59,145 nucleotides of DNA from a virus. Lineage: Duplodnaviria > Caudoviricetes. Of this stretch, positions 2,076 through 59,145 are shown one piece after another. The position numbers were made by a program, and so were the translations under genes. The notes below the pieces were generated by a model, which searched no databases, was not told the origin of the DNA, and saw only the letters and a list, made by a program, of their open reading frames with translations. The DNA lies in IMG/VR virus record IMGVR_UViG_3300012953_000034, positions 1 through 59,145 of that record; one strand, written 5' to 3'. Position 1 is the stretch's first letter; every line of letters begins with the position of its first letter.

Positions 2076-5000
2076 TTAGTCGTCGAACGATGCACCGGTT
2101 GAAGCAATCACAAAGTCAATCGCGATATATTCAATGGCACGTGCTGGCTTGACCATGATCTTAGCATATAAAATGTTTTGATCAATCAAGTCTGGGGTTG
2201 TTGTCGATTCATCGAGAATCAGCTTATAATCAGAGATACCGAAGTTGCTCTTCACGTTTGCCAAGAATGGCTCGACTAAGCCGATGAAACGGTTCCAAGT
2301 AGTTTGGACATTTTGCTCAAAGAGGATTTTGGTTGAAATAACCGAAATTTGCTTCTTGAGGTAAATTACCAGTCGGCGTACATTGATTCTATCAAGTGCA
2401 GATTGGCGTGTTTGAAGGGTCTTCTGACCGAATACTACGATCCCACTGGATGGGAACGATGCAATTGGGTTGATATTGGCTTCGTAAAGGATATCTCTCT
2501 CCTTAGACGTAAGCTTCTGAGTAACTGCAGAAACCGGAATCCCAGCGGCACCATCAGTGAGGCCACCGCGGTTGAAGCCCGCGGGCGCGAACCAAAGTTG
2601 TGCTTTGCGCTCAGAACTCGCGAGTACACCCATCATTGCCACGGATGGTGGCACCCAGAGCGCAGCTCCGGAGTTTTCATCGCGTGTCTGAACCCAAGGA
2701 TAGAAGGTGGCTCCATAAGATGAGTCTATTCTTCTGTCTCTGAGAGCCGTGGCTGCCTGAGTCGGCGTAGATGCCAGACGTTCGGCTGCTGTGGAAGCTC
2801 CAGTATAGTTTCCTTCGGCTGTCGGCAAGTAGACGTCCGGCAGGTCGATTAGAGCCATTGCATCAGCGCGCTCTTCGCAAAGGTTAACCATATGCTGAGT
2901 CAGAGAGTCTCGGGTAAGACCGGGAGCCGCTAAAAGATTCATATCAATTTGCTCTGGGTCGGCCAAAGTATCAAGGGCGCGCTTCCAAGAGTAATAAATG
3001 CTACTGTTACGCTCCGTCGATGCAGCTGCCATACCGCCATTCCATAGCGGATCGGGAAGTTTGATATTAAAGCCGTCAAATCCACCCCAGAGAGGTACAG
3101 TGAATGCATCGTGGCCGGCCTTCAAGAGATCCTTGTAAGTCTTGCCAGATTGCGCAGTGTAGCTCGAGCCATCAAGTCGGGAACCAGAGCGGTAGAACAT
3201 GTTGTTAACGTTTCCGCTCATTACAAGGTTATCCATAGAGAAGACATATGCGTACCCATCAATACCGGCAATAGTGCCAGCAGTTGGATCACTAGTATCC
3301 TTCATTGCTCGGCTCAGAAGTCGCTGAACGCTCGGAGTGCTTCTATCGAATGTGCTTGAGCCAGATGCGCGTGTGTATTGGGCACCGAAGAAAGCACGTG
3401 CTGGATTAGTGATACCTCCATCAGATGCCGAGTGGCGCAGGCGCACACTTGGGAATCGCAAGGCTACTAATGTTCCAACGCCGTCGCCATCAGCCGATGC
3501 GGTTGCAACCGTTCCAGCGCCACTCAGAGCGTAAACTCCGCCGGGCCCAAAAACGGTTTCAGTGGTGGAGCCAGTACCAATTGTTATGTAGGTGGATCCG
3601 ACCGCGGTTCGGGAAGACCTCATAGATCCTGTCGTTACCAGTACATTCTCTGCATCTTTATATTTTGGTGGCCCATAGTAACCGAACGGAAGGAGTGTTT
3701 CGAGACCGGATGCGCCAGCAGCCACTTCAGGATTCATATCGACATAGATGAACTTAGACTGATTCGGGTATTCACCATAGCTGCGTAACCTCTTCTCTGT
3801 CTCATTCCAAGTCTGGAATTGATCTCCTATCTTGCGGGCAATGTAATTTGGAGACGTGGGATCAAGATTCAGGTTGTCGAACCTTTCTAAGATCTGAATG
3901 GCGTTATCCGAATCGGAAATATTTCTTATTAATACCGAGAAGCTACCATAGTCTGTGGTACTAGTGTTCGACTGTCTCACATTATCAATAGAAATCTTGA
4001 CGTTTTTGCCAAGCCATGCGCCATGGCCGCGGCCAACAAAGCGGAACAGCTTTTGCATATCTTCGGGCACGAAGTCGGCGGATGTACCTAGATCTTGTCC
4101 AATAAGCCAGTTTGTGCGTGCTTCGCGGGCATTGCAGCCTACCATATTGGCCGGGGTGTTATCCGTGTCCATCTCGACACTGCCGCTCAGACCTAAAGGC
4201 ACCACAACTCCAACCAGGGTAGACGTAAGGCTTCCGTTCTTTTCTTCACATAAGTCACGGGTTTCCTGATCGTAAGTCTCCCCAAGCCAATAGTCTTTAA
4301 GGGAGGCTTCGGGGTAGAAGTTTCCGGAATTGAACAATTGGGGATTGGTGTTGAATACCTCGCGAATATATGTATCGGCATTGTCGCTAAGGCTGAAAAG
4401 ATACTTCTTGGTTGTGCCATCGCCGGAAGTGTGTTGGGCCGTAAAGACACCGTTGGCATCCGAAAGCACAGTACCTCCAACACCAACAACATTATCTAAA
4501 CCTTTTTCAACAGAACTCGTCAAAGCGCCGTTGCTCCACATTGTTCCCGAAAGCCCCATAACACCGGCGTCCAGGTACCACACAGCTGCGAGTGTTCCAG
4601 TTGCATAGGTAGTTCCTGAGCCAGTTAAAGTGAATGAAGCTGACGGCCAAACAAAAAGTCCGAAGGCGCCACCACCGCGTTTGTTGGTACCATCGGCAAG
4701 GCCAAGAGTTCGCCAACCAGCGTTAGAGGCATAATCGGGAGATGTAGCTGTCTCGGCTTGAGGGTGTTGATGCCCTAAAACACGTACATATGTGAGCGGG
4801 GCAACATTAGATGCTAAAAATGCCTTTGAGGCATAAGTCCCATAAACCGGCGACTGAAGGCTTAGGCCATCTCGATAGACGTCACCGCCGGCCTTTCCGG
4901 GTATGGTGTCTCCGAACATATTAACGAAATCGGAGTAAGCTTCCACTTTTACTGGCTGCATCGAAAGGCCGCGGCGGGCGCGACCGACTACGGCAGGACC

Positions 5001-5090
5001 AATAGCTGTTGGGGAGCGGGGGATAAAGGAGTTATCAATCTCGTTGATAAAAACTCCAGGAGATACGAACTTAAAATTCTTCACTGACAT
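2076..5090 (-). CDS. Contractile tail sheath protein (T4 gp18-like) with large insertion domains
   Basis: N-terminal FVSPGVFINEID; C-terminal WFAPAGFNRG, INPIASFP, FGQKTLQ, ALDRINVRRL, KPARAIEYI. Confidence 0.95.
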   Translation of the reverse strand: MSVKNFKFVSPGVFINEIDNSFIPRSPTAIGPAVVGRARRGLSMQPVKVEAYSDFVNMFGDTIPGKAGGDVYRDGLSLQSPVYGTYASKAFLASNVAPLTYVRVLGHQHPQAETATSPDYASNAGWRTLGLADGTNKRGGGAFGLFVWPSASFTLTGSGTTYATGTLAAVWYLDAGVMGLSGTMWSNGALTSSVEKGLDNVVGVGGTVLSDANGVFTAQHTSGDGTTKKYLFSLSDNADTYIREVFNTNPQLFNSGNFYPEASLKDYWLGETYDQETRDLCEEKNGSLTSTLVGVVVPLGLSGSVEMDTDNTPANMVGCNAREARTNWLIGQDLGTSADFVPEDMQKLFRFVGRGHGAWLGKNVKISIDNVRQSNTSTTDYGSFSVLIRNISDSDNAIQILERFDNLNLDPTSPNYIARKIGDQFQTWNETEKRLRSYGEYPNQSKFIYVDMNPEVAAGASGLETLLPFGYYGPPKYKDAENVLVTTGSMRSSRTAVGSTYITIGTGSTTETVFGPGGVYALSGAGTVATASADGDGVGTLVALRFPSVRLRHSASDGGITNPARAFFGAQYTRASGSSTFDRSTPSVQRLLSRAMKDTSDPTAGTIAGIDGYAYVFSMDNLVMSGNVNNMFYRSGSRLDGSSYTAQSGKTYKDLLKAGHDAFTVPLWGGFDGFNIKLPDPLWNGGMAAASTERNSSIYYSWKRALDTLADPEQIDMNLLAAPGLTRDSLTQHMVNLCEERADAMALIDLPDVYLPTAEGNYTGASTAAERLASTPTQAATALRDRRIDSSYGATFYPWVQTRDENSGAALWVPPSVAMMGVLASSERKAQLWFAPAGFNRGGLTDGAAGIPVSAVTQKLTSKERDILYEANINPIASFPSSGIVVFGQKTLQTRQSALDRINVRRLVIYLKKQISVISTKILFEQNVQTTWNRFIGLVEPFLANVKSNFGISDYKLILDESTTTPDLIDQNILYAKIMVKPARAIEYIAIDFVIASTGASFDD

Positions 5091-6565: not shown

Positions 6566-7840
6566 CTACCCCACAAAAATTGGCAATGGCGAATTTTTAA
6601 ACACATTTTGTGTTGCATCCGTCGTTTCAGAATCGTATTTAACGAGTTCTTTGTATTCAGTCTCTTTCAGCATCTCCATCAGCTTATCTTTTAACTGAAG
6701 CTGTTCATCTTTTGCTTGTGACAGCAATTCTGTATGGTTTAGTGTGACGCTTTCTCCCGGAATGGGAATCGTTTGGAACTTTCCGCGTATTTGGCCTAAC
6801 ATCTCCTTACACAGTGCTAAGCAATATTTTCTAATCCACTGCTTACCGATAGCATTGATGTTTGCATAGGGGATATTATCGAAAGGTAAAGTGTTAAGAT
6901 TGTTTACGCCGTGCACACCGTCATTGTATCCTGCATTAGATGAAAATACGTTCATGTCTTCAACATAAAACCGAACCCATATGCGATCTAAATCGCCGAA
7001 ATCCCAGTGACCCGGTTCTGGATATATTCTTAGCTTGTTGTCTATAATTTCGTATGAATAATGTGATGTACGTGTGTAGATATTATCTTCATACATTATG
7101 GCTTGCATCTTGTTTTGCCACGAAGGAACAATTTCAAATGTTGAATCATCAGCAAACTGGCCATATGTATTAAGGTTGCCCACAACACCCAAACCACCAT
7201 AGTATCCAAAGAAGCGCCACATTGCGCGCGGTGTCTTGTAGAAAACTTTAGTTATAACAACCCGATCGTCCCCCACCTTGCCAGCAAACGGTACGGCGTT
7301 TCCAGAATCATCAACACCATCTGAAGATGCTGTTTCGATAATATTCTGTAGATCATAGTCTTGCTGTTTTGTCACCGGCTTGAAAGAAGCCGAATATTCC
7401 GGTAAGGTTCCACCGTATCCACCAATTGACGCCATCGAATCAGCTACTTTGTTTGCATAGCCAGATCTAAATCTTGGGTACCGCAAGTTGCCGCTAACAG
7501 GGCCACTGATTAGAGTTCCGTCATGATTAAATGTCCCGGTCGTGTTGCCTAGAGCATTGGAAAGAACATTCTTTCCCTGATGCATGTTAATAATGTAAGA
7601 ATACTCTAATACTGCTTCTTCATATGCAGCATAAACATTAGAAGGTGTCAGTTCAATATCAACAACATCGCCACCGAGCTTTTTGTACACATAAGCAACT
7701 TGATCAGAAGCACCACTAAGGAATGGAACAGAAGCTGTATATATGCCGAAAGGGCACGCGCCAGAGACAGCTAATGCTGAACCCGTTGAGGTTAAAACAA
7801 TAGCACTAGTGGTAGATTTGGGATTTAAGTTTGTCGGCAC
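6566..7840 (-). CDS. Neck protein / head-tail adaptor (T4 gp13-like)
   Basis: KKLGGDVVDIELT, WIRKYCLALCKEMLGQIRGKF, PGESVTLN, ends PLPIFVG; GGAGG SD before GTG. Confidence 0.85.
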   Translation of the reverse strand: MPTNLNPKSTTSAIVLTSTGSALAVSGACPFGIYTASVPFLSGASDQVAYVYKKLGGDVVDIELTPSNVYAAYEEAVLEYSYIINMHQGKNVLSNALGNTTGTFNHDGTLISGPVSGNLRYPRFRSGYANKVADSMASIGGYGGTLPEYSASFKPVTKQQDYDLQNIIETASSDGVDDSGNAVPFAGKVGDDRVVITKVFYKTPRAMWRFFGYYGGLGVVGNLNTYGQFADDSTFEIVPSWQNKMQAIMYEDNIYTRTSHYSYEIIDNKLRIYPEPGHWDFGDLDRIWVRFYVEDMNVFSSNAGYNDGVHGVNNLNTLPFDNIPYANINAIGKQWIRKYCLALCKEMLGQIRGKFQTIPIPGESVTLNHTELLSQAKDEQLQLKDKLMEMLKETEYKELVKYDSETTDATQNVFKNSPLPIFVG

Positions 7841-8983: not shown

Positions 8984-10813
8984 TCAGGATCCGCCTTCAC
9001 CAATCATGCCGCGAATAACGACAAGACCGTACATATCGGGACGCACCATCTTCTTAGCGTACCGAGTCATCACGCCCTTGCGAGGCACGAAGTCTTCTGG
9101 TCCGAAGATAGTTGGTGTGGTTTGCAGTGGGACGTACGGAGCGTACACATATCCGCTTTCAAGGAAAGAGGATCCGCGACGACCGACGAGCACCAAGTTA
9201 CGCAAGAAGTATGGATCAACGTATACGTCGAACTTCTTGGTAAGTGCTCCGACCTTCACAGCGCCGATGGAACCACGCTCGTCGTCACTAGTGACGGTGG
9301 CGCGGAAGCCAGCAGTGAACTCAAGGACGTTGGCAACTTCAGGTCCGCAGACAATAAAGTTAGCTCCGCCGCGAAGAGTCTTGCGGTGAATTTGTGCAGA
9401 AACATCGTTGATGGTTTCAACGAGAGTCTCATACCACTCGGATACAGTACCAGTGAAATCGGGAGCCTTAGTGGCAGCACCAATTTCAGCGCCTGTGTCA
9501 CGATTAACAAACAGACCCGGTGAGCGAGCCCAGTACTTAGTACCAGCCTTTGCACCGCGAATAAGATCTTCAAGGATCTCTTGATCGATTTCGAGAGCAA
9601 CTTGCTCCGAAAGGATGCTTGTCAACTCAACCTCTGCATCAAGGTTGTGGTAGGCGTTAAGGTCTTGACCTAACTCCGGAGTCCACTTAGCCTTGAGCTT
9701 CTTGGTCACAGCGGTCACAGCCACGGAATCGACCTTGATGTCGATCTCGGGGATCTTCTCGTTGTTTTCAAGGCCCCATGGGTCGTCACCGACCAGAGAA
9801 CCGAGAGCGCCACCAGCGACAAAGTCGTCAGTGATTGGCCAAGAACCAGAGATAAGGTTTGCACCGCCTGAACCGGGATAACCTGCACCGCCGGCAGCGT
9901 GAGTAGAACCAGTCAGGATTTCTGCTAACTGTGTTGCAGAAGTCGAACCATCATAGGATGCAATAACGATGATAGCGTGTGAATCGCCATGATCAGTTGA
10001 ACCAGTGATACGAGTTAAGCGTTTAAGCTGAACACCGTTGATGGCTGCGGAGCCCGACGAAGCGAGTTTACCCATACCAGCGTGACCAGACGCACCAGAA
10101 ACGACGAATGCGTTAAGGTTGCGGTTGCCAAGTGCAGCATCGAAGTCAGTAAGACCTGACAATTGAATACTACCAATAGCAACAGTAGCAGTACCAGACT
10201 GCGACTCAAGTTCAGCATCATACTCACAAAGCTTCGGAACATCACCAGCAGAAGAGCTGTATACACTCGAAGTGACAGCTGTAATCGCTAGGTTACCGGA
10301 GCCGGTTGGTGAAGCGTAACCGTTGTTAAGGTTGTAAGGACCTTCTTCGGCATTCGCTGCGGTAAGCTTAACACCACCGGTTAATTGTGAACCGACGATG
10401 CCGCCTCCGTAGAGCGACTCTTCATCACCTTGGGGATCACCGTAACCAAGACGGGGCAGACCTGCACCTTCGCTTGAGATAGTGAAGTCCAAGAAGAAAA
10501 TGAGGCCCGAGGGCAAGCTCATTGGTTGGACAGAGACAAGATCGTTTGCGATCAAGCCAGCGAAAACACGACGGACGATTGGGAATGCGACGGCTGCAAA
10601 GCCCTCAACATCTCCACCCTTCATTGTCGAAGTTTCGCGAAGTAGTTCTTTTGCTTGGTTTTCAAGCAAGCGAGCCATTGAGTTACGGTTTTGATCTCCA
10701 TCAAGACCCTCAAGAAGACCCGTCTTCTCCCACTTGGAAAGAAGAGCGTGTCCTTCTGCTCGCATATCACGATTGACCATACCTTCGGTCAATCTTTCGA
10801 TAATACTAGACAT
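8984..10813 (-). CDS. Major capsid protein (T4 gp23-like)
   Basis: LLENQA, FPIVRRVF, VSVQPMSLPSGLIF, KLKAKWTPELGQDLNAYH, YAPYVPLQ, GVMTRYA; strong SD AGGAGGTGAT. Confidence 0.97.
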   Translation of the reverse strand: MSSIIERLTEGMVNRDMRAEGHALLSKWEKTGLLEGLDGDQNRNSMARLLENQAKELLRETSTMKGGDVEGFAAVAFPIVRRVFAGLIANDLVSVQPMSLPSGLIFFLDFTISSEGAGLPRLGYGDPQGDEESLYGGGIVGSQLTGGVKLTAANAEEGPYNLNNGYASPTGSGNLAITAVTSSVYSSSAGDVPKLCEYDAELESQSGTATVAIGSIQLSGLTDFDAALGNRNLNAFVVSGASGHAGMGKLASSGSAAINGVQLKRLTRITGSTDHGDSHAIIVIASYDGSTSATQLAEILTGSTHAAGGAGYPGSGGANLISGSWPITDDFVAGGALGSLVGDDPWGLENNEKIPEIDIKVDSVAVTAVTKKLKAKWTPELGQDLNAYHNLDAEVELTSILSEQVALEIDQEILEDLIRGAKAGTKYWARSPGLFVNRDTGAEIGAATKAPDFTGTVSEWYETLVETINDVSAQIHRKTLRGGANFIVCGPEVANVLEFTAGFRATVTSDDERGSIGAVKVGALTKKFDVYVDPYFLRNLVLVGRRGSSFLESGYVYAPYVPLQTTPTIFGPEDFVPRKGVMTRYAKKMVRPDMYGLVVIRGMIGEGGS

Positions 10814-17874: not shown

Positions 17875-17893
17875 CTAAAGTTTCCTTTTTATT

Positions 17894-19021: not shown

Positions 19022-19071
19022 ACTTTGTCCTCGTCTCTAATAAATAGATTATTTTTGTTTATTAGACATAT

Positions 19072-19102
19072 AAAAAAGGATGCCCCCACAAGGGAGGCAT
19101 CC
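19072..19102 (-). terminator. Rho-independent terminator
   Basis: GGATGCC...GGCATCC stem followed by T6 on the minus strand. Confidence 0.7.
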
Positions 19103-19135
19103 AAAAATGAGATAATCTTCAAGATTATAAAAATC

Positions 19136-20668: not shown

Positions 20669-20688
20669 GTGTACCGTGCAGTATTTTT

Positions 20689-42873: not shown

Positions 42874-42875
42874 TT

Positions 42876-48000: not shown

Positions 48001-48266
48001 TTGGGAACATTCATGAAGTAACCACCTACAAAATTTCTGAATGCATCACTTGAGCCGGCTAATAAGTTTAAGTCTACGTACGAACACCCGATCGATTCCT
48101 GCGGGTCAATCAAATCTTCTGATGGTGTTGCTGTCAACTCCGCAAACGTTAGTTTGACTCCATCAATCACGTCAGTAAGAGCTTCGGACGCGGCTGGGTC
48201 AAGATCTTCAGATGCGGGAGATGGTATAACTGCTCCTGGGGGGGAACCTGGAAAAAATGGAGCCAC
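45087..48266 (-). CDS. Large hypothetical (probably virion) protein
   Basis: 1059 aa, Tyr-rich, FnIII-like YTYRVYAY and KYYYLFRAVN motifs, ends KIRLTSKKTGKKIDLN. Confidence 0.55.
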   Translation of the reverse strand: MAPFFPGSPPGAVIPSPASEDLDPAASEALTDVIDGVKLTFAELTATPSEDLIDPQESIGCSYVDLNLLAGSSDAFRNFVGGYFMNVPNEEGKYTVPPSFAKFKSNSFQSSYLYSVASLTGEEINELATPLGTPSSEDMSPDTLDVKLRGYDEFSPYIQDIILPYVQFVCKIDGDPEAEYLSDIMFGNKYWKLLFTGGRFLYTDISPIYNEAVYDDHWFTTTRPYPNIQKQYLKNPEMIYSYIELGSRYNFFVRNYQSYSDDIENEKELPNWYLTNLVAETPAAYEILAKVPLVERLGPPGISYTSAPDARYLNPNIIEYYTRNGQVTLEHIESLLEWPPAGDYEPSTSEASGPNKNTPLQFMNYLNYLNTTFVNHSNKVSRGTRNYLHNRFSNVLFNANSVESFLRNDSNAFLYEKMVPFCNKITFPTHATKKYAQDIARNDYSTMFLRNLKEIFLRQGDATVPIERMQYLKNQKFLSSSIGMTANGVECTTGIVEHRSVDYIQSLLYNYNKISDDFEDFMVMDYENIDTKSIYDTRGIYRAYNNRNIVKTFENCLARQAPNLSSYRVNSIGDILNSQVYGDGTKVDFSDADTLASLNPDPKYNEVLAYRIEKIGGPPSGDANTQNALQNFWIFNGSGLEEMNFLDTQVKYDTDYTYRVYAYYIVEGFKYKYSDLRISRIIGQVSAEEGWTGAVDLGTGIEGTPPPPPDAYCIEYYDPFTGNRSSDLLEDIVYDTDLPAAALSEEISRVATDAQRIAASAKKSEGGGVLPPYVAQFLATCQPSVRIVEIPIASKTYRILDNPPSNIDAVPYHYKDNSSRLNFELYYQSPSERFYPRIILDSDEVTRTQYLHARDYLLTTPLSYKESTISPASSIEVYRLNKRPKSFKEFSGNLYKTISLKIPRSNFTYTTAVFDDIVKSNTKYYYLFRAVNELGIPGNVETILEAELVNDGGYKYANFEVLFEEDLFQPSHKETSISFRKLIQLTPKLSQTNMNTTAANFGLTASEEYEKVEIGTAEELIWDKTFKIRLTSKKTGKKIDLNITYSDPTKKLKKEDDED

Positions 48267-49729
48267 TAGTAACTACCTCCGCCGCCGCCCATACCGCCGC
48301 CACCGCCGCCGCCTGTGCCAAAGCCAAAGCTAGACGGAATGCCCATTCCGGATCCGGGAGAGGGCGGGGTAAGACCTGTTCCACCTGTTCCTCCAGCGGA
48401 GTCGACAGGCAACAGCCCTGCGCCGGCGCCTTCAGAACCCATGAACGTGTACCCCGAACTCATTGGTGCTGCGGGGAACGACCCACCATAATCCATACCC
48501 AGATCTCCGCCGGCTTCCATCATCATACGAAATTCTTCCGCGGTCAATAAACCTTCGCCAGGATATTTGACTGGTCGACCACCATTTCGTTTTGAGCCGG
48601 CTCTAATAGATGAATCAAGGATTTGAGAAATAGTGACGTCCTCCATTGTTTCTTTTTGGGTAATTTTTTGATATCTTTCATTTGACATTTTTAACCTAGG
48701 TATTGTTCGGATAACATCATTTCTTGGGACAAAACCTTCTTCCAGACCATCTAGAATAGTATCTAAAGAGTTGTTCAGGCGCTGAAACGTCTCCTGATAG
48801 GGTTCACCGTCAGCTAATTTTGAAAAACCGAATGTTTCTTTTAGTGATATCTTCTCAGACTCTCTCCAAGAAACAGGATCGAAAGGATCAGTTAATCTTA
48901 TGGTGCCATAAGTTGTATTAGAATCAAATGGATACCCCACGGTGGGGTGCGTCTCGTACGAGTCGACGAGAGTGACGCTTCCATCTGATCCAATCGTGCC
49001 CATGCCGGCGCTGATACCAAATGATAGTCCATTAATATAATCTGTCCAACCGGTAGTTAGACCTTGATCTGGGTCTTCATAAATGTTATTGAATTCTGTC
49101 CTCCATACCGCAACAGATCCAGAACATCTTTCTTTCCAGAGATCGTACCAAAGGCCTGTATTGGCTGCCCTTGGAAAAGTTACAACACCCCACCCGCCGG
49201 CGGACGTGTCCCAAAAAAGCGACCCGTTGATGCATCCGGGGAATATGGTCGATGAGCGAGCGCCGAGATCTGGCTTGGCGTACCTTATTCCATAACTATC
49301 TTCTGTAAGGGTTGTTGTTTCATCTAAGTGCTCCACTGGCCAGGTTTCGCCGTCGTTTAGAGCGGATATTTCATCGGTTATTCTTTGCGATAAATCGACC
49401 TCGGCCATCAAAGTGGTAGTATTTCCATATGGCGTGTACGGTGTGTCGGCGTCAGCGCTGAACAACTCAATCTCGGCGCCGTCCGCGGACGAATAAGCGC
49501 CGGCGTCTCGCAATTCTTGCCCGATTCTTTGACCGCCGGTGGCGCCATATCCTGTATTGTGGCCTGGGTAAGTTGTGGCTGAAAAGTCCGTGCTGTACTC
49601 TACATATGTTCCGTATGACGGATCGCTACCTCCAGAATCAGGATTCGGTGATTCTGGAGTTGTTACCGTGTACGATACAACGTAAGGGGTGCCTCCAAAG
49701 CCCGCTCCAGTGTGTCCATTTGCTGCCAT
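48266..49729 (-). CDS. Hypothetical protein with Gly/Met-rich C-terminus
   Basis: 487 aa ORF with AGGAG SD. Confidence 0.55.
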   Translation of the reverse strand: MAANGHTGAGFGGTPYVVSYTVTTPESPNPDSGGSDPSYGTYVEYSTDFSATTYPGHNTGYGATGGQRIGQELRDAGAYSSADGAEIELFSADADTPYTPYGNTTTLMAEVDLSQRITDEISALNDGETWPVEHLDETTTLTEDSYGIRYAKPDLGARSSTIFPGCINGSLFWDTSAGGWGVVTFPRAANTGLWYDLWKERCSGSVAVWRTEFNNIYEDPDQGLTTGWTDYINGLSFGISAGMGTIGSDGSVTLVDSYETHPTVGYPFDSNTTYGTIRLTDPFDPVSWRESEKISLKETFGFSKLADGEPYQETFQRLNNSLDTILDGLEEGFVPRNDVIRTIPRLKMSNERYQKITQKETMEDVTISQILDSSIRAGSKRNGGRPVKYPGEGLLTAEEFRMMMEAGGDLGMDYGGSFPAAPMSSGYTFMGSEGAGAGLLPVDSAGGTGGTGLTPPSPGSGMGIPSSFGFGTGGGGGGGMGGGGGSY

Positions 49730-50383: not shown

Positions 50384-53300
50384 CTACACATCAACATCAT
50401 CGATACCCATTGTTAAACTTAATTCATCCGCGACTCTTGTATAGTCTCCAATGTGATCTGTTATTCTATCTTTGACAAATCCACCGAATCGGAAATTTCG
50501 TTCACTGCCTATACTGGCTGCATAATCTTTGGCCATGGCGTTTATTCTCGTAAGCTGAGAGTCCATTAATTCACACTGTTGTTTAAACTCCACAAGAACC
50601 TGTAGCGTGCCAGTTTCTGGTCTTATCATTTCTAACATATTGTTGGCGGTTTGCATCATCTTGTCCCACTCTCCGCCAAACACATCTGAGAAAATAAGCT
50701 GGTATAGGTGATAAATTGCTATCATCTTAAACCAAGGCGACTTTCTGGGATCCGGATGTTTAGTTAGCATAGTTTCAACAAAAAAGTTATTGAAACGAGT
50801 TGTAAAATCATTAAACGAGCAGTTTTCTTCAGCAAACTCGTAATATTCGCTCATAAAGACAGAATAAATATCACGGTACTTTTTTCCTAGGGCTTTAATA
50901 ATATCGTCACTGTTGTCTTCTATGGTTATGTCAATAGAATATTTATCTACAAAATAACCACCGTTAAAATCACTATCTACGCCCCCCAATGTGGCGCCAT
51001 AATCATCCTCACCTTCTGCCGTATTGTTTCCAGCATAAACTTGGTCGTCATCCGTAAAATATTGGTAGTAAAACATAAAAAGCCTGTAGTTGTTTGTCCA
51101 GGTTTCTTTTGAGCTACCGAACGAGACGTCTTCAAAGCCCGGAAAGCCGAATGATCTTTGCACAACATGTGAAAACTCATCATACGCTTTCGATTCTGCG
51201 AGGTGTTGCATATCAACTTCTGCCATACCCATCGGCGAATCGACTTCTGGGGTGCCGCCACTTGTATAATATGTTGTATCAGTTATTTCATCAAAACTAG
51301 TATCACTTAATATGTTTACCCGATTATATACCAGAGGGGTTAAATTGACGGCCTCGGTAGGAATAACAAGCTGTAAAAAATCATAGGTGTAAGGAACATT
51401 CGTTATATTTTTGTATTTCAATCTCATAAAGAAGTCTCCCCGTGAGCCCCAGTTATGATTGTAATATATGCATTCTTTCATCTTAATTGCTGAATTAGTT
51501 ATTTCTTGTGCTGACGGCATATAGGCCATAAGTCTATCGACGTTTAGGAAATTAGATATTACTGATCTTTTTCTAATATATTTTTCCATATCAAAAAAGA
51601 AGTTTCCATATTTTTTTACAATAATATCGGTTTCTGCTAGGGCAGAATGGACGCCGGTATCGCTCGTAAAACCTTCGAAGGCGCCTTCAACGATCAAAAG
51701 TTCCTGGATAATCTCCTTGATTCTTGCTAAGTTATCTGAAAGCTTATTTCTTATGAAATTGCGCGCATCGTGACCAAAAGATATTACTTGATAATTTCTA
51801 CTGGTTGACGTGCCACTATCTTCGCCGCGGGAGGTGTCATCATCTTGAAATTTATCTTGTATCTCATAGTCTCCATATGGAAACCAGCACCCATTGGTGG
51901 AGCGCGTTCTAATATTATGAACGCTTGCGGTTTTCCAACTGTTGCTGATGTATTTGTAATTAAAAGTTGAGTTTTCTGGGCACACACCAGTTGCAAGAAT
52001 AAAGGTACAAAGACGGTTTGATAGATATTGATTTAAATACACTTCCAGCCTGTCGAGAAGGCCTGTTGATAAAATCTCTGCTGTGCCTTGTCGCTCAGTA
52101 GCTGTATTAAGATCAGTACCGCTTAGTTTGGTTATTTCGTTTTTTAACCAAAGATACAGTGATCTTCCTATTTGGCCCGGAAGATCCTTTAAGTATTCGT
52201 CCAGTTCGGTGCCCGTATTGAGATCATTTACACTAGTATAATCGGGATTAATTCCCATAGATTCTTTGAGCGCTCGAATCTCATCATCACTCATGCCTGA
52301 GTCGCCACCCGTAAAGGCTGTGACCAAATCACTATTTGTAACATTAGTGCCGTCGCCGCTCGAGTATACTTGATATACGGAATAATCATCGTCACCACCC
52401 ATGACATTGAGCACGGTTGCATCTGATGGAACTGCTGTTGGATATTCAACACCGCTGGGTGAAAGGTCTATACTGGTAAAACCATTAATTGGATCAATTC
52501 CAAATATTCTGCTTAATAATTTTATTATTTGTCCTTGTACTTCTCTTACATTTTTACGAACGATATGAACAATACCAGAAGGCGCATCCTTTCGTTCCGG
52601 ATAGTAATCGCCGCTCTCGCCGAGAGCAGAACCAGACCTGGACTTTACCATCGTGATTGGGTTAATCCCACCAATTCTTTCAACATGATTTTCCATAAGC
52701 CATTCAGCCCATTCATAGCCAGTTATATCTCCTTGATCAAAAGTCCACCACTCCGCACTAGTGCCGGTGGGGTTAACGATCATCGAATCTCCGGGGCCAG
52801 CAGATCGCCGAGGAACAAAAACTGTAATTTGGTCGATAGCGTGTGAGCTATTACCAAGACTAGTCGCTGTGTGGCCGGGATACGGATGATTGGCTGCGGG
52901 GTGCGAGCTAGAGTCTGCTCCAAACAATTGCCAAGCAGAATACATCTCTCCTCTATCGCACCTAGACAATATTGTTGATGCCATTTTGGTACAGGTCGAT
53001 TCCACGTTCTCATAAAAGAAAGCCTTTCTATTCCAACCGGATGTGTCCATTGTGGCGGCGTCCGTGCCGCTGCCGCCGTGTGGTATATCTATACCGAACG
53101 CGTCGTTATACTGAGACCAACTGTTGCCAGCCTGAGCATCTTTAAAATTCATTAAGTCCCTATACGCATATTTCCAGCTAGCTGGTCTCCACGTGTCGTC
53201 GTCGGCATCGCAGCCATCTCCCCAATTTAGGCCATCTGGTGCTGTTCCCCAGGGATGATCGATTAGGAAGGTTCTCCATCCTGAGTGATATTCTCCGTAT

Positions 53301-55027
53301 CCAGTACCCATATCTCCAGTAGCATATACAAAGCGGCCGGCCCAGTTGTTAAATGACCAATCGAATGCTCGACGGGCGGCGCTCTCGATTACTTTAAGAA
53401 TAAAGTTGTTTGCTGTATCATTTCCTCCAAAAGCTACTTCTGGGCGGGCAAGGGGAGCAGCGAAGCCTCCAAGGCCCCATTCGCCGCGCGACTCTTCTGC
53501 GGTTGTAAACGATACATCATCCCAATCAGTAGTTGGGCCGTCGCCGCCGTTAACAAAATCAAACCAAGAATGATCCGTTAATAATGTGTCTAGTTCGTTC
53601 ATAAGTTGGGCGCGTTTGGCATCATAAACCTCCTTCCTCTCAGTGGGAGAAACTGGGAGTTCTGCAGCGCCAGGATAAGCAGAAGGCTGATTTGCGATGG
53701 GTACATATTTCGCCACAGCGCTGGCGAATAGGTTCTTGTTGACATAGATAAACTCTCGCACATCGTCATTATCTATAAACGATGTGGCGTCAAAAGAAGC
53801 CGGGGTGAATGCTCGAGCGTCGACTATTTTATAGTTTTTAAATACTCTTTTTATCACCTCATCTTGCTGCATTAATAGCTGATCAACATTAAATATTAAC
53901 CTTCGGAATCTCTCATACAGAACACTGACTTGGCTAGCCCCCACTTGTTCGGGAAAAACATCTGCGGCTTGTTCTAGTTTTTTTAAAAATTCGAGGGAGT
54001 CTTTATGGGTATATACCATCATGTTTATTTCGTCAATAACCTCTCTCATCTGTAAATCAGAGAGATATGACGGCCTATATTCGGACAAAAGCTTGCTGAG
54101 GGATTCTTCTATTTCTGCGGCCCCAAATTTATCTGTTTTGTAAAATTTGCCATTCAATGCCTTAAGCGGAGGATTAGGGTAATAAACGCCGGACTGATCC
54201 ACATATGAAGCATCACCGTAAGTTATCAAGGAGTTATTTTTCCTTATTTGTTCATAAGAAACATCACTAAAATTTAAAGTGTATGCCGCGGTGCTTAGGC
54301 GGGTCATGGGCCCGTACGGTGCGCGCACATCTCCTACTGATATGGCAGCAAAAGCAGTCAATTCATCAATAGATGAAAAATCAAGAACAAATGTGTCTAT
54401 CTCTATTTGAGACATTCTTATAATAGGGTTTTCATCTTTATCAAAAGTTGTGGTAAATCTTACCGTATCATAGAACTCACTTAGTGGTATCGTAATGACA
54501 TAAAGGCCGGAGGGTTCCAATAGCTCTAGTATCTCTGTAATATCATTTATACCTGAGTGTGGGGCCCCACCTTCAGGGCTAGCAAATGCAGGTTCCGCGC
54601 GGAACGCTTCAGCTGGATTTCCGGTTGTAGGTTGCATGAACGACTTTAGTGCCAATCTAGATTTCTTAAGCTGGTCTCCAACTCCATTTCGTGCTATAAT
54701 CAAATTTATGTAAAGAGGTTCCGTCGAGCCTCCGTCAACCGTTGATCTGGCGCTAAACAATTCGTTGGAAAAATTTTGAGCATCAAATCCTTCAATTGTA
54801 TTAAACAAAACGGAAATCATAAACTTCATCCTAGTAGTAGAAGCTACCTGATCTACAATTTTGTCAGCCTGATCCGAAAACTTTACAGTCGTTCTTGCTT
54901 TTTGAACTAAGTCTCCAAAATCTTCATCACTTAAATTAATCGTCTCAAGCCGAACAATGTCGATAATTGGTGTCGGTAAATGGCGACCTAATAGGTCTAC
55001 TAAGTTATCTTGCAGTTTTAAGGACAT
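50384..55027 (-). CDS. Large hypothetical (probably virion) protein
   Basis: 1547 aa uninterrupted ORF overlapping the upstream gene. Confidence 0.6.
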   Translation of the reverse strand: MSLKLQDNLVDLLGRHLPTPIIDIVRLETINLSDEDFGDLVQKARTTVKFSDQADKIVDQVASTTRMKFMISVLFNTIEGFDAQNFSNELFSARSTVDGGSTEPLYINLIIARNGVGDQLKKSRLALKSFMQPTTGNPAEAFRAEPAFASPEGGAPHSGINDITEILELLEPSGLYVITIPLSEFYDTVRFTTTFDKDENPIIRMSQIEIDTFVLDFSSIDELTAFAAISVGDVRAPYGPMTRLSTAAYTLNFSDVSYEQIRKNNSLITYGDASYVDQSGVYYPNPPLKALNGKFYKTDKFGAAEIEESLSKLLSEYRPSYLSDLQMREVIDEINMMVYTHKDSLEFLKKLEQAADVFPEQVGASQVSVLYERFRRLIFNVDQLLMQQDEVIKRVFKNYKIVDARAFTPASFDATSFIDNDDVREFIYVNKNLFASAVAKYVPIANQPSAYPGAAELPVSPTERKEVYDAKRAQLMNELDTLLTDHSWFDFVNGGDGPTTDWDDVSFTTAEESRGEWGLGGFAAPLARPEVAFGGNDTANNFILKVIESAARRAFDWSFNNWAGRFVYATGDMGTGYGEYHSGWRTFLIDHPWGTAPDGLNWGDGCDADDDTWRPASWKYAYRDLMNFKDAQAGNSWSQYNDAFGIDIPHGGSGTDAATMDTSGWNRKAFFYENVESTCTKMASTILSRCDRGEMYSAWQLFGADSSSHPAANHPYPGHTATSLGNSSHAIDQITVFVPRRSAGPGDSMIVNPTGTSAEWWTFDQGDITGYEWAEWLMENHVERIGGINPITMVKSRSGSALGESGDYYPERKDAPSGIVHIVRKNVREVQGQIIKLLSRIFGIDPINGFTSIDLSPSGVEYPTAVPSDATVLNVMGGDDDYSVYQVYSSGDGTNVTNSDLVTAFTGGDSGMSDDEIRALKESMGINPDYTSVNDLNTGTELDEYLKDLPGQIGRSLYLWLKNEITKLSGTDLNTATERQGTAEILSTGLLDRLEVYLNQYLSNRLCTFILATGVCPENSTFNYKYISNSWKTASVHNIRTRSTNGCWFPYGDYEIQDKFQDDDTSRGEDSGTSTSRNYQVISFGHDARNFIRNKLSDNLARIKEIIQELLIVEGAFEGFTSDTGVHSALAETDIIVKKYGNFFFDMEKYIRKRSVISNFLNVDRLMAYMPSAQEITNSAIKMKECIYYNHNWGSRGDFFMRLKYKNITNVPYTYDFLQLVIPTEAVNLTPLVYNRVNILSDTSFDEITDTTYYTSGGTPEVDSPMGMAEVDMQHLAESKAYDEFSHVVQRSFGFPGFEDVSFGSSKETWTNNYRLFMFYYQYFTDDDQVYAGNNTAEGEDDYGATLGGVDSDFNGGYFVDKYSIDITIEDNSDDIIKALGKKYRDIYSVFMSEYYEFAEENCSFNDFTTRFNNFFVETMLTKHPDPRKSPWFKMIAIYHLYQLIFSDVFGGEWDKMMQTANNMLEMIRPETGTLQVLVEFKQQCELMDSQLTRINAMAKDYAASIGSERNFRFGGFVKDRITDHIGDYTRVADELSLTMGIDDVDV

Positions 55028-56091
55028 ATTTCTGGTTCAACCTCGCTTCCATAGATATCATTATAAGCATCTTCTATGTTGTTATCTGTGCAGTCTAGAT
55101 CTAAATCAATATAGTAAGACGTTTTATTGTAAATTTTCATTTTTTTGCATACAATTTCTGAATCAGCTAACGCATCATTTTTAAAATCAAAATAATAATC
55201 CACCGAAGTTAACGGCGGACTTGAGATTGATATTTCACTATCTGGCGCTGGTCGAGTCATTATTCCGTCTATTATTTGCGGTGTTTCTGATTCAAAATAT
55301 TTTCTTTGTAATACGGAGCCTGTAATTAGAAATACTTCTATATCAAAATTCTCAGTAAGTAGTTCTGTGTTTACTTCATCTACGTATATAATAGGATCTT
55401 GCTTTTTAAGTCGAATGTAGTTTTGATCAGAAAAATTAGGCGTTTTGTTTATCATTTCAGATAATGTTAGCTCACCACTCTCGCTGGGAATAGGGAACTC
55501 TGACGAACGTATTTCTTTCTCGTACTCGACTACGATATCTACTTGCGGGATGTTCACGGATGCAGAGGAAGAAGAGTGCAGAAACATTGATGGCGAAGAG
55601 CCAGTAATTTTTCCATTTAGTACTACTATTTTCCAAGCCGGCGCCACATTGGTATCCTTACTTGATAACATTGCATCGCCTATTGCTGAATCAAATTTAA
55701 AAGTATCTTGCCTAGGCAGGTACTGAATTGGCTCAACGTCGGCAGCAAAATAATTTTGCGTTCTCCTGAAGGCCCATTCGTAGTAGCTCCGGTCTTCTTC
55801 CGACAAATCTTGCGCAGCCAAATCTGGAGGCATTCGAACAAGTTTTTGTTGGGCACTGTTAACGTCTTCGAATAATACCATACTTCCAAGGTAGGAAGTG
55901 TCGTTTTTAATTCTTTCGTTGATTGAGTTTTGAGATTCGCTAATATTGCAATATTGATAATCATATATAACGTTATCATCAAAAAAAGCATATTGTGAAG
56001 CTTTATATTTACCAACAGAGAGAAGGTATCGTCCGTATGCAGTGAGCCTTAAATCATAGACTCTTTCTTTTTTATCTAAAATATTTGCCAT
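55018..56091 (-). CDS. Putative baseplate/virion protein
   Basis: N-terminal DLRLTAYGRYLLSVGK...YAFFDDNVIY, related to the N-terminus of 44023-45051. Confidence 0.55.
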   Translation of the reverse strand: MANILDKKERVYDLRLTAYGRYLLSVGKYKASQYAFFDDNVIYDYQYCNISESQNSINERIKNDTSYLGSMVLFEDVNSAQQKLVRMPPDLAAQDLSEEDRSYYEWAFRRTQNYFAADVEPIQYLPRQDTFKFDSAIGDAMLSSKDTNVAPAWKIVVLNGKITGSSPSMFLHSSSSASVNIPQVDIVVEYEKEIRSSEFPIPSESGELTLSEMINKTPNFSDQNYIRLKKQDPIIYVDEVNTELLTENFDIEVFLITGSVLQRKYFESETPQIIDGIMTRPAPDSEISISSPPLTSVDYYFDFKNDALADSEIVCKKMKIYNKTSYYIDLDLDCTDNNIEDAYNDIYGSEVEPEICP

Positions 56092-56106: not shown

Positions 56107-59100
56107 TTATTGTTTTTTCTTCAATTCAACTTTCTTTTTAGCTCGTTGTGTCTTGTCTAACACTTGATTTTGCTTACCTATATTCTGATTTGTGTTGGAC
56201 TGAAGCCCAGGGGTTCCTTTGTGTCTATTGAACTTGATGTCAACATCTAGCCTAATTGACTCAACAATCGATACAAAATCATATGGCCAGTTAAATCTCA
56301 AATACCTAGGATACTGGCCGGCCCAAGGGACAAATCCCTTCTGGTTGAAAACAGGTTCACCAGCCTGAGTAACCAACATATCCTTGTAAGATGATTGGCT
56401 ACGTTGTTTAACTTTGAAAACCATCCATCTCAAGTTTGGATTGGCGAGTAAATTTTTCTCTGTTAGCAGTTCATTATTACCTAAAGTATGAGCTACGCAT
56501 TCTTTTTCCATACTCATTCTGGTATAATTTCTAGGAGCAAGGTTCTGCCATATATACGATAAATCATCTTGATCCAATTCATACTTAAACTCAAATATGT
56601 ACATTACAATCGGGTCTAGCTGTTCATTTTGTGCAAAATCAAATTGCGGCGGAAATACATATCTTTCCATTGTTTGCATCATGTGTCTAATCGAGGCGCC
56701 CGAGGCTCCGAGGTTGTCGCCGGTTTGACTTTTTGCTTGTGCTTTCATTGCAGCTTTAAATCTCTTACGAGGAATATTGATAAATCTCTTTCTTAATTGA
56801 GCATTTGCGCCGGCTGGCTGCTGTTCGTCTGGCTCGAGCCCCTCCATTACATATGGAATCGCCACAACTGCTTCTCGGATGGTTTGTTTCTCTGCAATTT
56901 CACCAATTCGTGTAGTTGAGTTGTCCTCGTTAAAACCCATTAATTTTGAAAAAGATTTCATATTTTTATATACGTCAGGACCTGAGCCAGTATTATAGTT
57001 ATTGTATGCGCTAGAGCCTGTTACAACTTCATAGTGCCACCTGAGCCACGTTTTTGGAATTTCGCCAATTTCTAAGAAAATTCCCTTGTTAGCTTCGTCC
57101 GGTATCACGCCAAATTGGTGCCACATACCACGTGGAACAGATCCGGAACTATAGAGTGGATTCGACAACGTACTGCTTCCAGAAGGAAGGCTGCCAGATT
57201 GGGTAGCCGACGCAGATGAAATACTAGCTGTGATGGGGTGAACACCCGAATCAACAAAGTTCAGCATTGGAGTTTCAAATTTAGTTTGAATAACCCACCG
57301 GTCGGCGGCGACTTCGTTTGTTTGACTAGATGTGTCTCCAAATTTATCCGTTGTTGTCTTTTGAATCAACTCGACACCAAAAAGATTGACGGATGCATCT
57401 AGCTGCATTGCATTTGAATCAATATTTTGACTATTATAGGGAGCAAAATTTAGCGGCCATCTATCTATAGACTCTGTGCTACCGGGTGAAACTAACTCCA
57501 AGGACATATCACTAACAAGCGTTCTCGCATAGTAGCCCGGTTTTGCAGCGTGGAGGTCGTTCCTGTCTGCTCCAGGGTCGTATCTTCTTTTTACTACATT
57601 GACCTCTTGCAAAATTGCCTCTAGATCATAATCAACATTTGCACGAGGATAGAATATGAAATCAACCCAAGACTCACCGTGATAATAAGGAGGAGTCCAA
57701 GCCCAGTTATAACCATTAAGTGCGTCTTTGACTCCATATGCCGACGCAGATAATGAAAATTGGTGAGATAGGCCGCTAATGATGGATAGCTTGTCTGCGG
57801 CCGGTACATTGCCCCAATCTCCCGGTGTGCTTCCGCCTGAACCAGTAGCAGGTGGCCGGCCGCTAAGAGGGGGTCCAAACGCGGTGGGTCTGCTGTACAT
57901 AACGAAATTTTGCTTGAAGGACGGATTGAGGCCTGGATCTTGTGGGATTTCAAAGCTGGCTCCGGAGATAAACTTCTCTGGATCCGTTGGGCTTGCTACA
58001 CCAGGGCGCGAAAGATTTTTAAAGTATGCCTGGGCACCGTCAAAAGCATATCCCAAGTTGCTGCCTGAGTAGCCCCGCTCCCAGTCATAAGATCTGACAC
58101 CATCATAGGAGCACCTCATTCTAAGGCGCGCGCCAAATGCTTCGCCGGTTTTGAACTTATATTTTTTGACGTTTACACCGTTAGAAGCTAATCGACTGTA
58201 GCGTTTATCTCTCAAGAAAAACTTTCCAACTTCTGCAACAAAGTTTGATGCCATAAGGTTATAAACGGAACCACCGGGTGCAGAATTCAGAGAAGCAGTG
58301 ATTGGTTTTGGCATAGACGCCGATGGGTGGGGTTCACACTCAACAATTCGAAGATTATTAAGATATGCGGTTGGATTTACAAGCGCCTCAAATGGAATTC
58401 TATCTTCAAAAAACGTTCCAGAAATATATCCTAATTCATGCGTTGCACTCTGATCGTTGTCTTTGGGTTTTGAAATTTTCCCAAGAGCACCGGTTATTGT
58501 TACATCTGTATTCATTATCCAGTTTTCATTATAGAAGGAGGAACTGCCCCAGGAGATTGATGCTGTAACATGTTGTGGCTTGAGCTTTTGCCCCTCTCCA
58601 ATAATAGGATAATCCACCGCAATACCGGCTTTGATGGAGTTAAACAAAATGCCAGGGGAAAACAGCGGCTGATAAACAGGTCTGACGTAACTAAATTGTT
58701 CAATAGCAGAGCCCGTTTGTACCAATTCTCTATTGTCTTTTGTCAAATACGAAACTGTGGTGTAATCAGCATATGATTTTGAAAACTGATTTACAAGCTG
58801 TAAAGAGCGATCCGCGGGATAGAAGCCCTTATACGGATTAAATTTAATCGCTGCTTCACAAGTAAGTTTTATCTCTTCCGCCTTGAGACCTGACATTTTT
58901 CTAACGTCTAGGAAATTTTTCAAGAAATCTGAATTACTATAATCTTTATAGAAATTTTGATCGGAACTGTTTAGATACGTACCTGGAATAGAAAGCATTT
59001 TGAAATCTTGAGTTTCTGTTGTTCCCATATTCATATACTTCTCTACATGTTCTGATACTCTATACTCTGGCACCACGACGAAGCCTTTAGCAATAGTTTT

Positions 59101-59145
59101 AATATCCTGCCTAAAGTGATCGTAGTTATTATACCAAGGTTTCGA
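56107..59145 (-). CDS. C-terminal part of a very large virion protein (5' end outside the window)
   Basis: Frame stays open from 59076 to the window edge (SKPWYNNYDHFRQDIKTIAKGFVVVPE...); rich in TGS/SAS/SGS. Confidence 0.65.
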   Translation of the reverse strand, partial: SKPWYNNYDHFRQDIKTIAKGFVVVPEYRVSEHVEKYMNMGTTETQDFKMLSIPGTYLNSSDQNFYKDYSNSDFLKNFLDVRKMSGLKAEEIKLTCEAAIKFNPYKGFYPADRSLQLVNQFSKSYADYTTVSYLTKDNRELVQTGSAIEQFSYVRPVYQPLFSPGILFNSIKAGIAVDYPIIGEGQKLKPQHVTASISWGSSSFYNENWIMNTDVTITGALGKISKPKDNDQSATHELGYISGTFFEDRIPFEALVNPTAYLNNLRIVECEPHPSASMPKPITASLNSAPGGSVYNLMASNFVAEVGKFFLRDKRYSRLASNGVNVKKYKFKTGEAFGARLRMRCSYDGVRSYDWERGYSGSNLGYAFDGAQAYFKNLSRPGVASPTDPEKFISGASFEIPQDPGLNPSFKQNFVMYSRPTAFGPPLSGRPPATGSGGSTPGDWGNVPAADKLSIISGLSHQFSLSASAYGVKDALNGYNWAWTPPYYHGESWVDFIFYPRANVDYDLEAILQEVNVVKRRYDPGADRNDLHAAKPGYYARTLVSDMSLELVSPGSTESIDRWPLNFAPYNSQNIDSNAMQLDASVNLFGVELIQKTTTDKFGDTSSQTNEVAADRWVIQTKFETPMLNFVDSGVHPITASISSASATQSGSLPSGSSTLSNPLYSSGSVPRGMWHQFGVIPDEANKGIFLEIGEIPKTWLRWHYEVVTGSSAYNNYNTGSGPDVYKNMKSFSKLMGFNEDNSTTRIGEIAEKQTIREAVVAIPYVMEGLEPDEQQPAGANAQLRKRFINIPRKRFKAAMKAQAKSQTGDNLGASGASIRHMMQTMERYVFPPQFDFAQNEQLDPIVMYIFEFKYELDQDDLSYIWQNLAPRNYTRMSMEKECVAHTLGNNELLTEKNLLANPNLRWMVFKVKQRSQSSYKDMLVTQAGEPVFNQKGFVPWAGQYPRYLRFNWPYDFVSIVESIRLDVDIKFNRHKGTPGLQSNTNQNIGKQNQVLDKTQRAKKKVELKKKQ

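Follow-up and report, generated by a model that had tools for sequence, protein, structure and literature searches.

Does a tripeptide that recurs in the structural proteins of a phage mark the sites at which its particles are modified? The question is raised by the IMG/VR record IMGVR_UViG_3300012953_000034 from an uncultured marine phage. The record consists of a single 59-kb contig (59,145 nucleotides, further referred to as the window), and all real genes of the contig lie on the minus strand. Judged by its structural and replication core genes, the phage is a T4-like myovirus. A preliminary description of the sequence noted that the motif [S/T]-[G/A]-S is concentrated in the virion proteins and took it for the recognition site of an enzyme that coats the particle surface. 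We show below that the motif is in excess in the window and in one clade of related phages, and that in this clade the excess travels with a pair of adjacent glycosyltransferase genes, named here GT4a and GT4b.

Motif excess in the window

The motif was counted in 45 minus-strand open reading frames (ORFs) of 18343 amino acids in total. It occurs 116 times, whereas shuffling of whole proteins, of 40-residue blocks and of 20-residue blocks yields expectations of 43.7, 47.6 and 48.0, respectively, with a standard deviation of about 6.5. The observed number was reached in none of 2000 shuffles. SGS, found 46 times against 14.5 expected, is the most overrepresented of all tripeptides. TGS is observed 31 times against 11.8 expected, SAS is weaker (24 against 12.4), and TAS is hardly enriched (15 against 9.8). 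Since the permuted tripeptides are flat (SSG, 11 against 14.9; GSS, 17 against 14.6; GGS, 11 against 15.5; SGT, 14 against 11.4), the signal is ordered and its core is [S/T]-G-S. When internal and paralogous repeats are collapsed, 102 sites remain against 42.4 expected, and after removal of the five fibre-family genes there are 66 sites against 32.1.

Among the 9-mers encoding the 116 sites 94 are distinct. The signal thus belongs to the protein and not to the DNA, and the statement of the preliminary description that the codons vary too much for DNA duplication holds. V, I or L occupies position −1 in 49 of the 116 sites (background 20.3%, p = 7e-8), in line with the early impression that the motif often follows a hydrophobic residue; hydrophobic residues also flank it at +3 or +5.

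The shuffle test was applied separately to structural and non-structural genes. The virion module (30 ORFs) contains 111 sites against 43.2 expected (z-score 11.0), and the 15 non-virion ORFs contain 5 against 5.1. The earlier counts of no sites in the Mre11-Rad50 fusion and in the terminase and of one in the primase agree with ours. The excess is confined to the virion module, and only about 12 of the 30 ORFs of the module carry it, so that the epithet "virion-wide" is too broad. Several long ORFs are at expectation: 12095-14368 (1 site against 2.8), 45087-48266 (1 against 1.5), 48266-49729 (1 against 2.0) and 50384-55027 (2 against 2.8). The same is true for the portal, hub and tube proteins, the tube gene (1408-2001) having no sites at all.

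A domain common to all carriers was sought and not found: modules are shared only within the fibre family (genes starting at 14368, 19136, 20689 and 21479) and by the pair 41569/42876. Selection on the motif thus operates on protein sequence, and it does so in proteins as well as domains that have no detectable homology in common.

Motif excess across genomes

The nearest named relatives by the capsid protein are Flavobacterium phage immuto, Microcystis phage Mel-JY01, Rhodothermus phage RM378 and two uncultured huge phages; at least 733 IMG/VR stretches encode a related capsid. Genome-wide expectations for [ST]GS were obtained from 30-residue block shuffles. The window contains 77 such sites against 26.7 expected (z 10.2). 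Eight relatives with a strong excess were examined: a 130-kb marine relative (G001; 89 against 33.8, z 9.6), immuto (117 against 50.3, z 10.7), RM378 (53 against 20.7, z 7.3), Mel-JY01 (140 against 72.8, z 7.9), the 100% complete marine genome G007 (115 against 46.6, z 10.3), and the 100% complete genomes G008 (104 against 45.3, z 8.8), G009 (97 against 46.4, z 7.5) and G010 (83 against 41.2, z 6.8). In each positive genome 40–75% of the sites are found in 5–10 ORFs, many of them without BLAST similarity to the carriers of the window.

The reference genomes behave differently: T4 has 20 sites against 30.0 expected (z −1.8), cyanophage Syn33, 75 against 61.8 (z 1.8), and Stenotrophomonas phage Moby, 31 against 29.6 (z 0.3). 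Intermediate values are observed for LR756511 (92 against 70.9, z 2.6) and LR756508 (119 against 85.7, z 3.4). The excess is a trait of one clade and not of T4-like folds.

A glycosyltransferase pair accompanying the excess

All eight relatives listed above as showing the excess carry the pair. In G001 and G007–G010 the two adjacent genes are situated approximately 25–30 kb beyond the place matching the right end of the window. At that end an orthologue of a giant ORF (more than 3700 amino acids) is truncated. The contig stops about 25–40 kb before the syntenic place, and we infer from the gene order of relatives that the phage of the window carries the pair beyond the end of its contig.

Both proteins belong to the GT4 family (Glycos_transf_1, GT-B fold). 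They score 46.0 bits (GT4a) and 31.0 bits (GT4b) with Pfam PF00534 (cut-off 26.4) and match phrog_2170, glycosyltransferase. The E-X7-E motif, the catalytic signature of GT4, is kept in four of four GT4a and three of four GT4b proteins; neither protein has a segment resembling a membrane span. Homologues of GT4a were found in 8 of 50697 phage records, and seven of these are the nearest capsid relatives of the window, with named hosts in three phyla. GT4b directly follows GT4a in immuto, RM378 and Mel-JY01, and of 80 IMG/VR loci, 79 have the two genes side by side and one ends 263 nucleotides past GT4a.

Structure prediction for the GT4a-GT4b complex gave a score of 0.86, and the best of three controls scored 0.00. 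Of 157 solved complexes 116 attain this mark, as do 2 of 215 mismatched pairs. At least 98% of contacts are common to the runs, and the predicted local distance difference test (pLDDT) of the partner is at least 89. The model supports binding of GT4a to GT4b but is no demonstration of it, and likeness to GT-B pairs of solved structure may have contributed to the score.

We asked which gene families share the distribution of the excess, using six-frame ORFs as targets and T4, Syn33, Moby, LR756511 and LR756508 as genomes without the strong excess. Of the 123 ORFs of G001, GT4b alone has counterparts in immuto, RM378 and Mel-JY01 and none in these five genomes; the same single match was obtained with the 195 ORFs of the complete genome G007. 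GT4b was also searched for in five further large contigs and found only in G002. The other four (39–60% complete) are uninformative, since the position of their capsid genes puts the syntenic region beyond their ends.

On the capsid tree LR756511, which has no glycosyltransferase, is sister to the clade, and LR756508 is nested inside it (supports 97/95 and 99/98). LR756508 keeps GT4a and other shared families and is without GT4b both by profile and by six-frame search. Its orthologues of the capsid, sheath, neck and 42876-44006 proteins are near expectation (1 observed against 0.8 expected, 1 against 1.4, 0 against 0.3 and 3 against 0.8, respectively). Moreover, its GT4a (LR756508.1, 305432-306748) ends about 25 residues early and lacks the C-terminal tail, which in the complex model would form the best-defined contacts of GT4a with GT4b.

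Several details of the loci may be mentioned separately. In L270, L315 and G002 (G002:C1:8311-9546) GT4b lies in longer open frames of 657, 664 and 704 amino acids and may be fused to the downstream gene. In Mel-JY01 (PP395634.1, 83441-84932) the annotation divides GT4a into two ORFs (190 and 302 amino acids), owing either to a split of the gene or to a sequencing frameshift. A large sugar cluster is situated next to the pair in G001 (L049-L050, 11031-32348). After the pair follow genes for a GT2-like protein and a WecB epimerase. The cluster further encodes a GNAT protein, a truncated DegT aminotransferase, a KdsC-like phosphatase, a PfkB kinase, a fusion of a nucleotidylyltransferase with RpiB, a split transketolase, a member of the sulfotransferase family and a protein similar to dTDP-glucose-4,6-dehydratase. 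A heptose-nucleotide pathway in this cluster was considered and is unsupported: WecB alone passes the NCBIfam cut-off, the heptose adenylyltransferase match scoring 58 bits against a cut-off of 181.5. RM378 has the pair without a sugar cluster or sulfotransferase beside it. The T4 late promoter TATAAATA was also tried as a clue to co-expression. None of its five sites in the window and few in the relatives are upstream of genes, and hence no conclusion about co-expression was drawn.

Conservation and turnover of sites

Alignment of the 242-residue adaptor or spike protein encoded at 21479-22207 with its 34 orthologues (35 sequences, 28–57% identity) shows that six of its eight sites are conserved by column, with TGS, SGS, TAS and SAS replacing one another at these positions; extra lineage-specific copies occur, and the serine at the third position is the most constant residue.

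Over all orthologous pairs between the window and G001, 23 of 72 window sites are kept as the motif; this is no better than the exact retention of control small-residue tripeptides (241 of 937 cases). At the same time the number of sites per protein is maintained (window/G001: 8/9, 5/5, 7/7, 3/3 and 5/4), and inspection of the alignments reveals true gains and losses within well-aligned flanks. Each of 67 capsid orthologues has 0–8 sites; 58 of the 67 retain one common column, the remaining sites being spread across more than 50 columns. What is selected is the motif, and often not the place where it stands.

Proposed explanation and its alternatives

The observations could be accounted for if Phi-[S/T]-G-S (Phi, hydrophobic residue), with S-A-S as a weaker variant, were a short recognition site for a phage-encoded enzyme, and this enzyme were a soluble two-subunit GT4 glycosyltransferase formed by GT4a and GT4b. 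It would O-glycosylate newly made virion proteins in the cytoplasm. The pair would have to act on protein, with a hydroxyl of the motif as the acceptor; the third-position serine, being the most conserved residue, would be a natural candidate. The sites would be solvent-exposed, and the sugar coat would cover outward-facing parts of the particle: the insertion domain of the capsid protein, the outer domains of the sheath, the spikes, the fibres and the outer baseplate proteins. The coat may shield the particle against proteases, host defences or non-specific sticking.

Attachment of sugar is made probable by the fact that the excess travels with the GT4a-GT4b pair in related phages. The recognition site suggested in the preliminary description has gained protein-level selection, turnover of sites and a fitting candidate enzyme in relatives. 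The claim that [S/T]-G-S is the attachment tag for a phage-made sugar coat is thereby partly supported, and we rate its chances as roughly even, with a structural role of the motif as its main rival. Somewhat below even stands the broader proposition that a widespread T4-like lineage, comprising marine uncultured phages, immuto, Mel-JY01 and RM378, uses a dedicated heterodimeric GT4 enzyme which reads Phi-[S/T]-G-S and coats capsid, sheath, spikes and fibres with glycan, the density of sites being constant while the sites themselves drift.

A number of observations weigh against glycosylation by this pair. As the preliminary description already stated, the window itself encodes no such enzyme (none by Pfam among the 48 ORFs scanned), so that for this particular phage the pair is deduced from synteny. 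The association with GT4b is shallow, amounting to one gain and one loss, the latter seen in one metagenomic genome. The power of the phyletic profile is limited, as no more than 14 families can be detected across the distant members. LR756508 and LR756511 retain a weak excess without GT4b, and in RM378 the capsid, sheath and 42876-44006 orthologues are at expectation. The E-X7-E motif of the RM378 GT4b is degenerate. A sequence search of GT4a against PDB produced 47 matches; BshA, MshA and TreT, the closest of them, are transferases of small molecules and match in the donor-binding half only. With GT4b the same search yielded nothing at E up to 0.1. The two enzymes could act on some other substrate. 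Since the count in non-virion proteins equals the expectation, the motif is not avoided there, and no sign of selection against off-target sites is seen. Finally, six column-conserved sites of eight in the 242-residue family, with glycine invariant at four sites, fit a structural role equally well.

The latter possibility is the strongest of the alternatives, and nonetheless unlikely in our estimate: the motif would be a structural or physicochemical element of exposed beta-rich domains, with no enzyme involved, and the co-distribution with GT4b would be a coincidence of shared ancestry. The element could be a strand edge or turn with a buried glycine and two outward hydroxyls, or a feature serving solubility and preventing aggregation. 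Besides the conserved columns and invariant glycines just mentioned, it is favoured by the hydrophobic flanks at −1 and at +3 or +5, the many fibre sites within a repeated module, the weak excess in LR756508 and LR756511, and the small number of events (about two) underlying the GT4b association. On the other hand, fibres, sheaths and capsids of the same folds in T4, Syn33 and Moby have no excess, the carriers have no detectable common domain, and sites come and go between well-aligned flanks without a change in their number. In addition, GT4b is the sole match to the distribution among the 195 genes of G007. In the capsid model the five sites fall into five different contexts (a strand start, an inter-strand loop, a strand end, a helix end and mid-strand), so that no single structural context is suggested for the motif, with the limitation that the mean pLDDT of this model is 59.5, the insertion carrying the sites being its best-predicted part.

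Still less probable is a site for some other modification or interaction (phosphorylation, acylation, sulfation, another phage or host enzyme, or binding of an accessory protein), the glycosyltransferase pair having a different substrate. In its favour, virion proteins of marine phages have been reported to be phosphorylated and acetylated (PMC12014285). G001 does encode a sulfotransferase-family protein, a GNAT protein and other sugar enzymes, and the small-molecule substrates of the nearest solved relatives of GT4a point the same way. Against this, GT4b is the one gene family distributed like the excess, the RM378 pair has no sugar cluster or sulfotransferase adjacent to it, and the spread of the hosts over three phyla makes a host enzyme improbable. 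As for an artefact of S/G/T/A-rich composition, low complexity or internal duplication, the carriers are indeed somewhat rich in these residues and the large fibre has repeated modules, but the 20-residue block shuffles, the flat permuted tripeptides and the counts after repeat collapse and without the fibre family have already refuted it.

Comparison with known systems

Work by Freeman et al. in Cell Host Microbe (2023) is said to have found that mycobacteriophage virions are glycosylated by phage-encoded glycosyltransferases. Virion glycosylation by phage enzymes is thus not new as such, and the motif with its GT4 pair would, if the proposal is true, be a new form of it. The mycobacteriophage glycans are located at the C-termini of capsid and tail-tube subunits (summarised in PMC12619734). 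The two cases are alike in that phage-encoded glycosyltransferases are proposed to decorate structural proteins in the cytoplasm and to produce a glycan shield. They differ in that the putative tags considered here are internal tripeptides in about a dozen proteins (in the capsid protein, at residues 170–322 of 609; in the tube, none), in the specific GT4 pair, and in the lineage, which comprises T4-like myoviruses of Bacteroidota, cyanobacteria and Rhodothermus.

The bacterial autotransporter heptosyltransferases (TibC acting on TibA, Aah acting on AIDA-I) carry out cytoplasmic hyper-heptosylation of many serines, and not threonines, in autotransporter beta-structure (PMC4358343). Serines in small-residue contexts of a repetitive beta surface protein would be common to both systems. 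The heptosyltransferases are a separate dodecameric family using heptose, whereas the phage enzymes belong to GT4 and a heptose-nucleotide pathway is unconfirmed in G001.

In Gram-positive bacteria the O-GlcNAc transferase GtfA-GtfB modifies serine-rich-repeat adhesins before they arrive at the surface, GtfB being catalytically inactive. The phage pair resembles it in having two adjacent GT-B genes, a predicted complex and serines flanked by small residues. The phage motif consists of isolated tripeptides instead of long Ser-rich repeats, and GT4b, which keeps E-X7-E in three of four orthologues, looks catalytically active, unlike GtfB. No sequence relationship was detected either: GtfA and GtfB are absent among the 47 PDB matches of GT4a, and GT4b has none.

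Flagellins of Campylobacter and Helicobacter are O-glycosylated at many Ser and Thr residues in the exposed central domains of a surface protein that polymerises, often after hydrophobic residues. Chloroviruses encode their own cytoplasmic glycosylation, their capsid glycans being N-linked. Both systems share with the proposed one many sites in surface proteins, and chloroviruses also virus-encoded enzymes; the enzyme families and the sugars are different. Two weak links to chloroviruses are a repeat match in the fibre protein (PF06598, see below) and PBCV-1 B736L, found among the matches of GT4a at E 1e-3.

In the literature searched there was no report linking Mel-JY01, RM378 or immuto with glycosyltransferases, and none on the transferases of the clade, on such a motif, or on mass spectrometry of a hexose-modified serine in a phage tail fibre. 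If the proposal holds, particles of an abundant marine lineage would be coated with sugar by their own enzymes at a short predictable tag, which would be the first O-glycosylation sequon to be defined for phage particles. This would bear on resistance to proteases and host defences and on avoidance of non-specific adsorption. With such a sequence rule, genomes alone would suffice for the prediction of modified sites, and a compact enzyme-tag pair would become available for site-directed protein glycosylation. Constant sequon density with drifting sites would resemble the glycan shields of animal viruses. As three members of the clade (immuto, with Flavobacterium sp. LMO8 as host, RM378 and Mel-JY01) are cultured with their hosts, the proposal is directly testable.

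Carrier proteins

The site counts made by eye in the preliminary description were reproduced for all the proteins it named. The strongest carrier is the fibre protein at 14368-17874 (−; 1168 amino acids, N-terminus MAY), described as having "dozens" of sites: 30 were counted against 9.3 expected, a number reached in none of 2000 shuffles. It holds three copies of a module of about 70 residues that is also present in 20689-21450. At residues ~675–693, in a module starting with DGSGLTGI, it matches the Chlorovirus glycoprotein repeat PF06598 (31.2 bits, cut-off 27).

The giant virion protein at 56107-59145 (−) is represented by its C-terminal part of about 1000 amino acids, the rest being cut off by the contig end; the part 56107-59076 has 14 sites against 2.3–2.7 expected. 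Its orthologue in G001 (3714 amino acids) has 26 [ST]GS against 5.0 expected, and the orthologues in complete relatives are 2516–3830 amino acids long.

The protein encoded at 21479-22207 (−; 242 amino acids), a putative trimeric adaptor or spike similar to gp9/gp10, has the eight sites of the early count against 1.3 expected. Its Foldseek matches are N-terminal modules of tailspikes, T4 gp9/gp10 and the Pa223 capsid spike (best E 2.3e-6), and the ESM Atlas gives weak gp9/gp10 leads for the family. In a sequence search of PDB the family has at most marginal matches to reovirus sigma-C (E 0.04). The AlphaFold2 model is uninformative on most sites, since pLDDT is below 50 at residues 1–106, which hold five of the eight sites, and a sixth (residue 107) is at the boundary. 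The adjoining 140-residue protein (22212-22634, −) has three sites against 0.6 (p ~0.02); its G001 orthologue has three too, none in the same place.

Eight sites against 1.9 expected are found, as first reported, in a baseplate or fibre protein at 42876-44006 (−; 376 amino acids) with conserved N- and C-termini and a variable middle. The G001 orthologue has nine sites in the pairwise alignment (10 in another count), two of them shared; paralogues of this protein are enriched for the motif in immuto and Mel-JY01. The C-terminal ~110 residues of the neighbouring virion protein (41569-42873, −; 434 amino acids; five sites against 1.2, p 0.003–0.006) are related to it.

The tail sheath (2076-5090, −; 1004 amino acids) has a large insertion and nine sites against 3.1–3.3 expected (p ~0.003). 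Solved T4 gp18 aligns to residues 703–1004 only, and all nine sites are outside this part, at residues 150–635, so none is in the conserved C-terminal core. The major capsid protein (8984-10813, −; 609 amino acids) has an insertion of about 250 residues and five sites, all of them [ST]GS, against 1.0 (p 0.003). All five (residues 170–322) are in this central insertion, which is not covered by the Gp23 models and is outside the part aligning to solved T4 gp23. From what is established for T4 we assume that the capsid and sheath insertions face outward.

The stretch 19136-21450, initially treated as one carrier, is composed of two ORFs with five sites each. Both encode fibre-family proteins with the MAY N-terminus: 20689-21450 (−; 253 amino acids; expected 1.3–1.8, p 0.008–0.025) and 19136-20563 (−; 475 amino acids; five [ST]GS against 1.3, p 0.010). 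The latter is borderline, since the four-variant motif gives five against 2.8 (p 0.14). The gp13-like neck protein (6566-7840, −; 424 amino acids) has four sites against 0.6–0.9 (p 0.004–0.010), including the two noted earlier near its N-terminus (residues 19 and 35); three of the four are kept in G001. The virion protein at 55018-56091 (−; 357 amino acids) has three against 0.4–0.6 (p 0.005–0.013).

Four consecutive genes at 14368-21450 (−) begin with MAY (MAYNNNKG, MAYNVLKG, MAYKFQIG and MAYNNLSG). This tripeptide occurs 8 times against 0.9 expected in the window and 99 times against 6.8 in related loci. The genes probably form a paralogous fibre family with a common N-terminal anchor, inserted so that the prohead protease gene lies on one side and the scaffold and capsid genes on the other.

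Other genes of the window

The structural genes of the window encode the baseplate hub, tube, sheath, gp15-like and gp13-like neck proteins, major capsid protein, prohead protease, portal and large terminase; the replication and other genes include the Mre11-Rad50 fusion, the primase and a RuvC-like resolvase. T4-type families identified by Pfam are PF07068 (Gp23, 240.6 bits), PF07230 (Portal_T4, 267.2 bits), PF03420 (98.6 bits), PF12322 (63.4 bits) and the sheath family PF17482; PHROG matches were also found.

A gene of the tubulin/FtsZ family (32703-33842, −; PF00091, 35.0 bits, cut-off 33) encodes a protein that shares 94% identity with its G001 orthologue; no other protein pair of the window and G001 is nearly as conserved. 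A PhuZ-like function is conceivable for it in a phage of about 185 kb. An 81-residue ORF between the prohead protease and the fibre cluster (22675-22920, −) resembles ribosomal protein S21 (PF01165, 26.4 bits, just below the cut-off of 27). The FKBP-type peptidyl-prolyl isomerase gene at 40347-40913 (−; PF00254, E 1.2e-22) adjoins the baseplate and fibre genes 41569-44006, and its product may assist in the folding of their products. The Mre11-Rad50 fusion is a single ORF of 1064 amino acids (33853-37047, −) that joins an Mre11-like phosphoesterase (PF00149) with a Rad50/SbcC-like ATPase (PF02463/PF13476).

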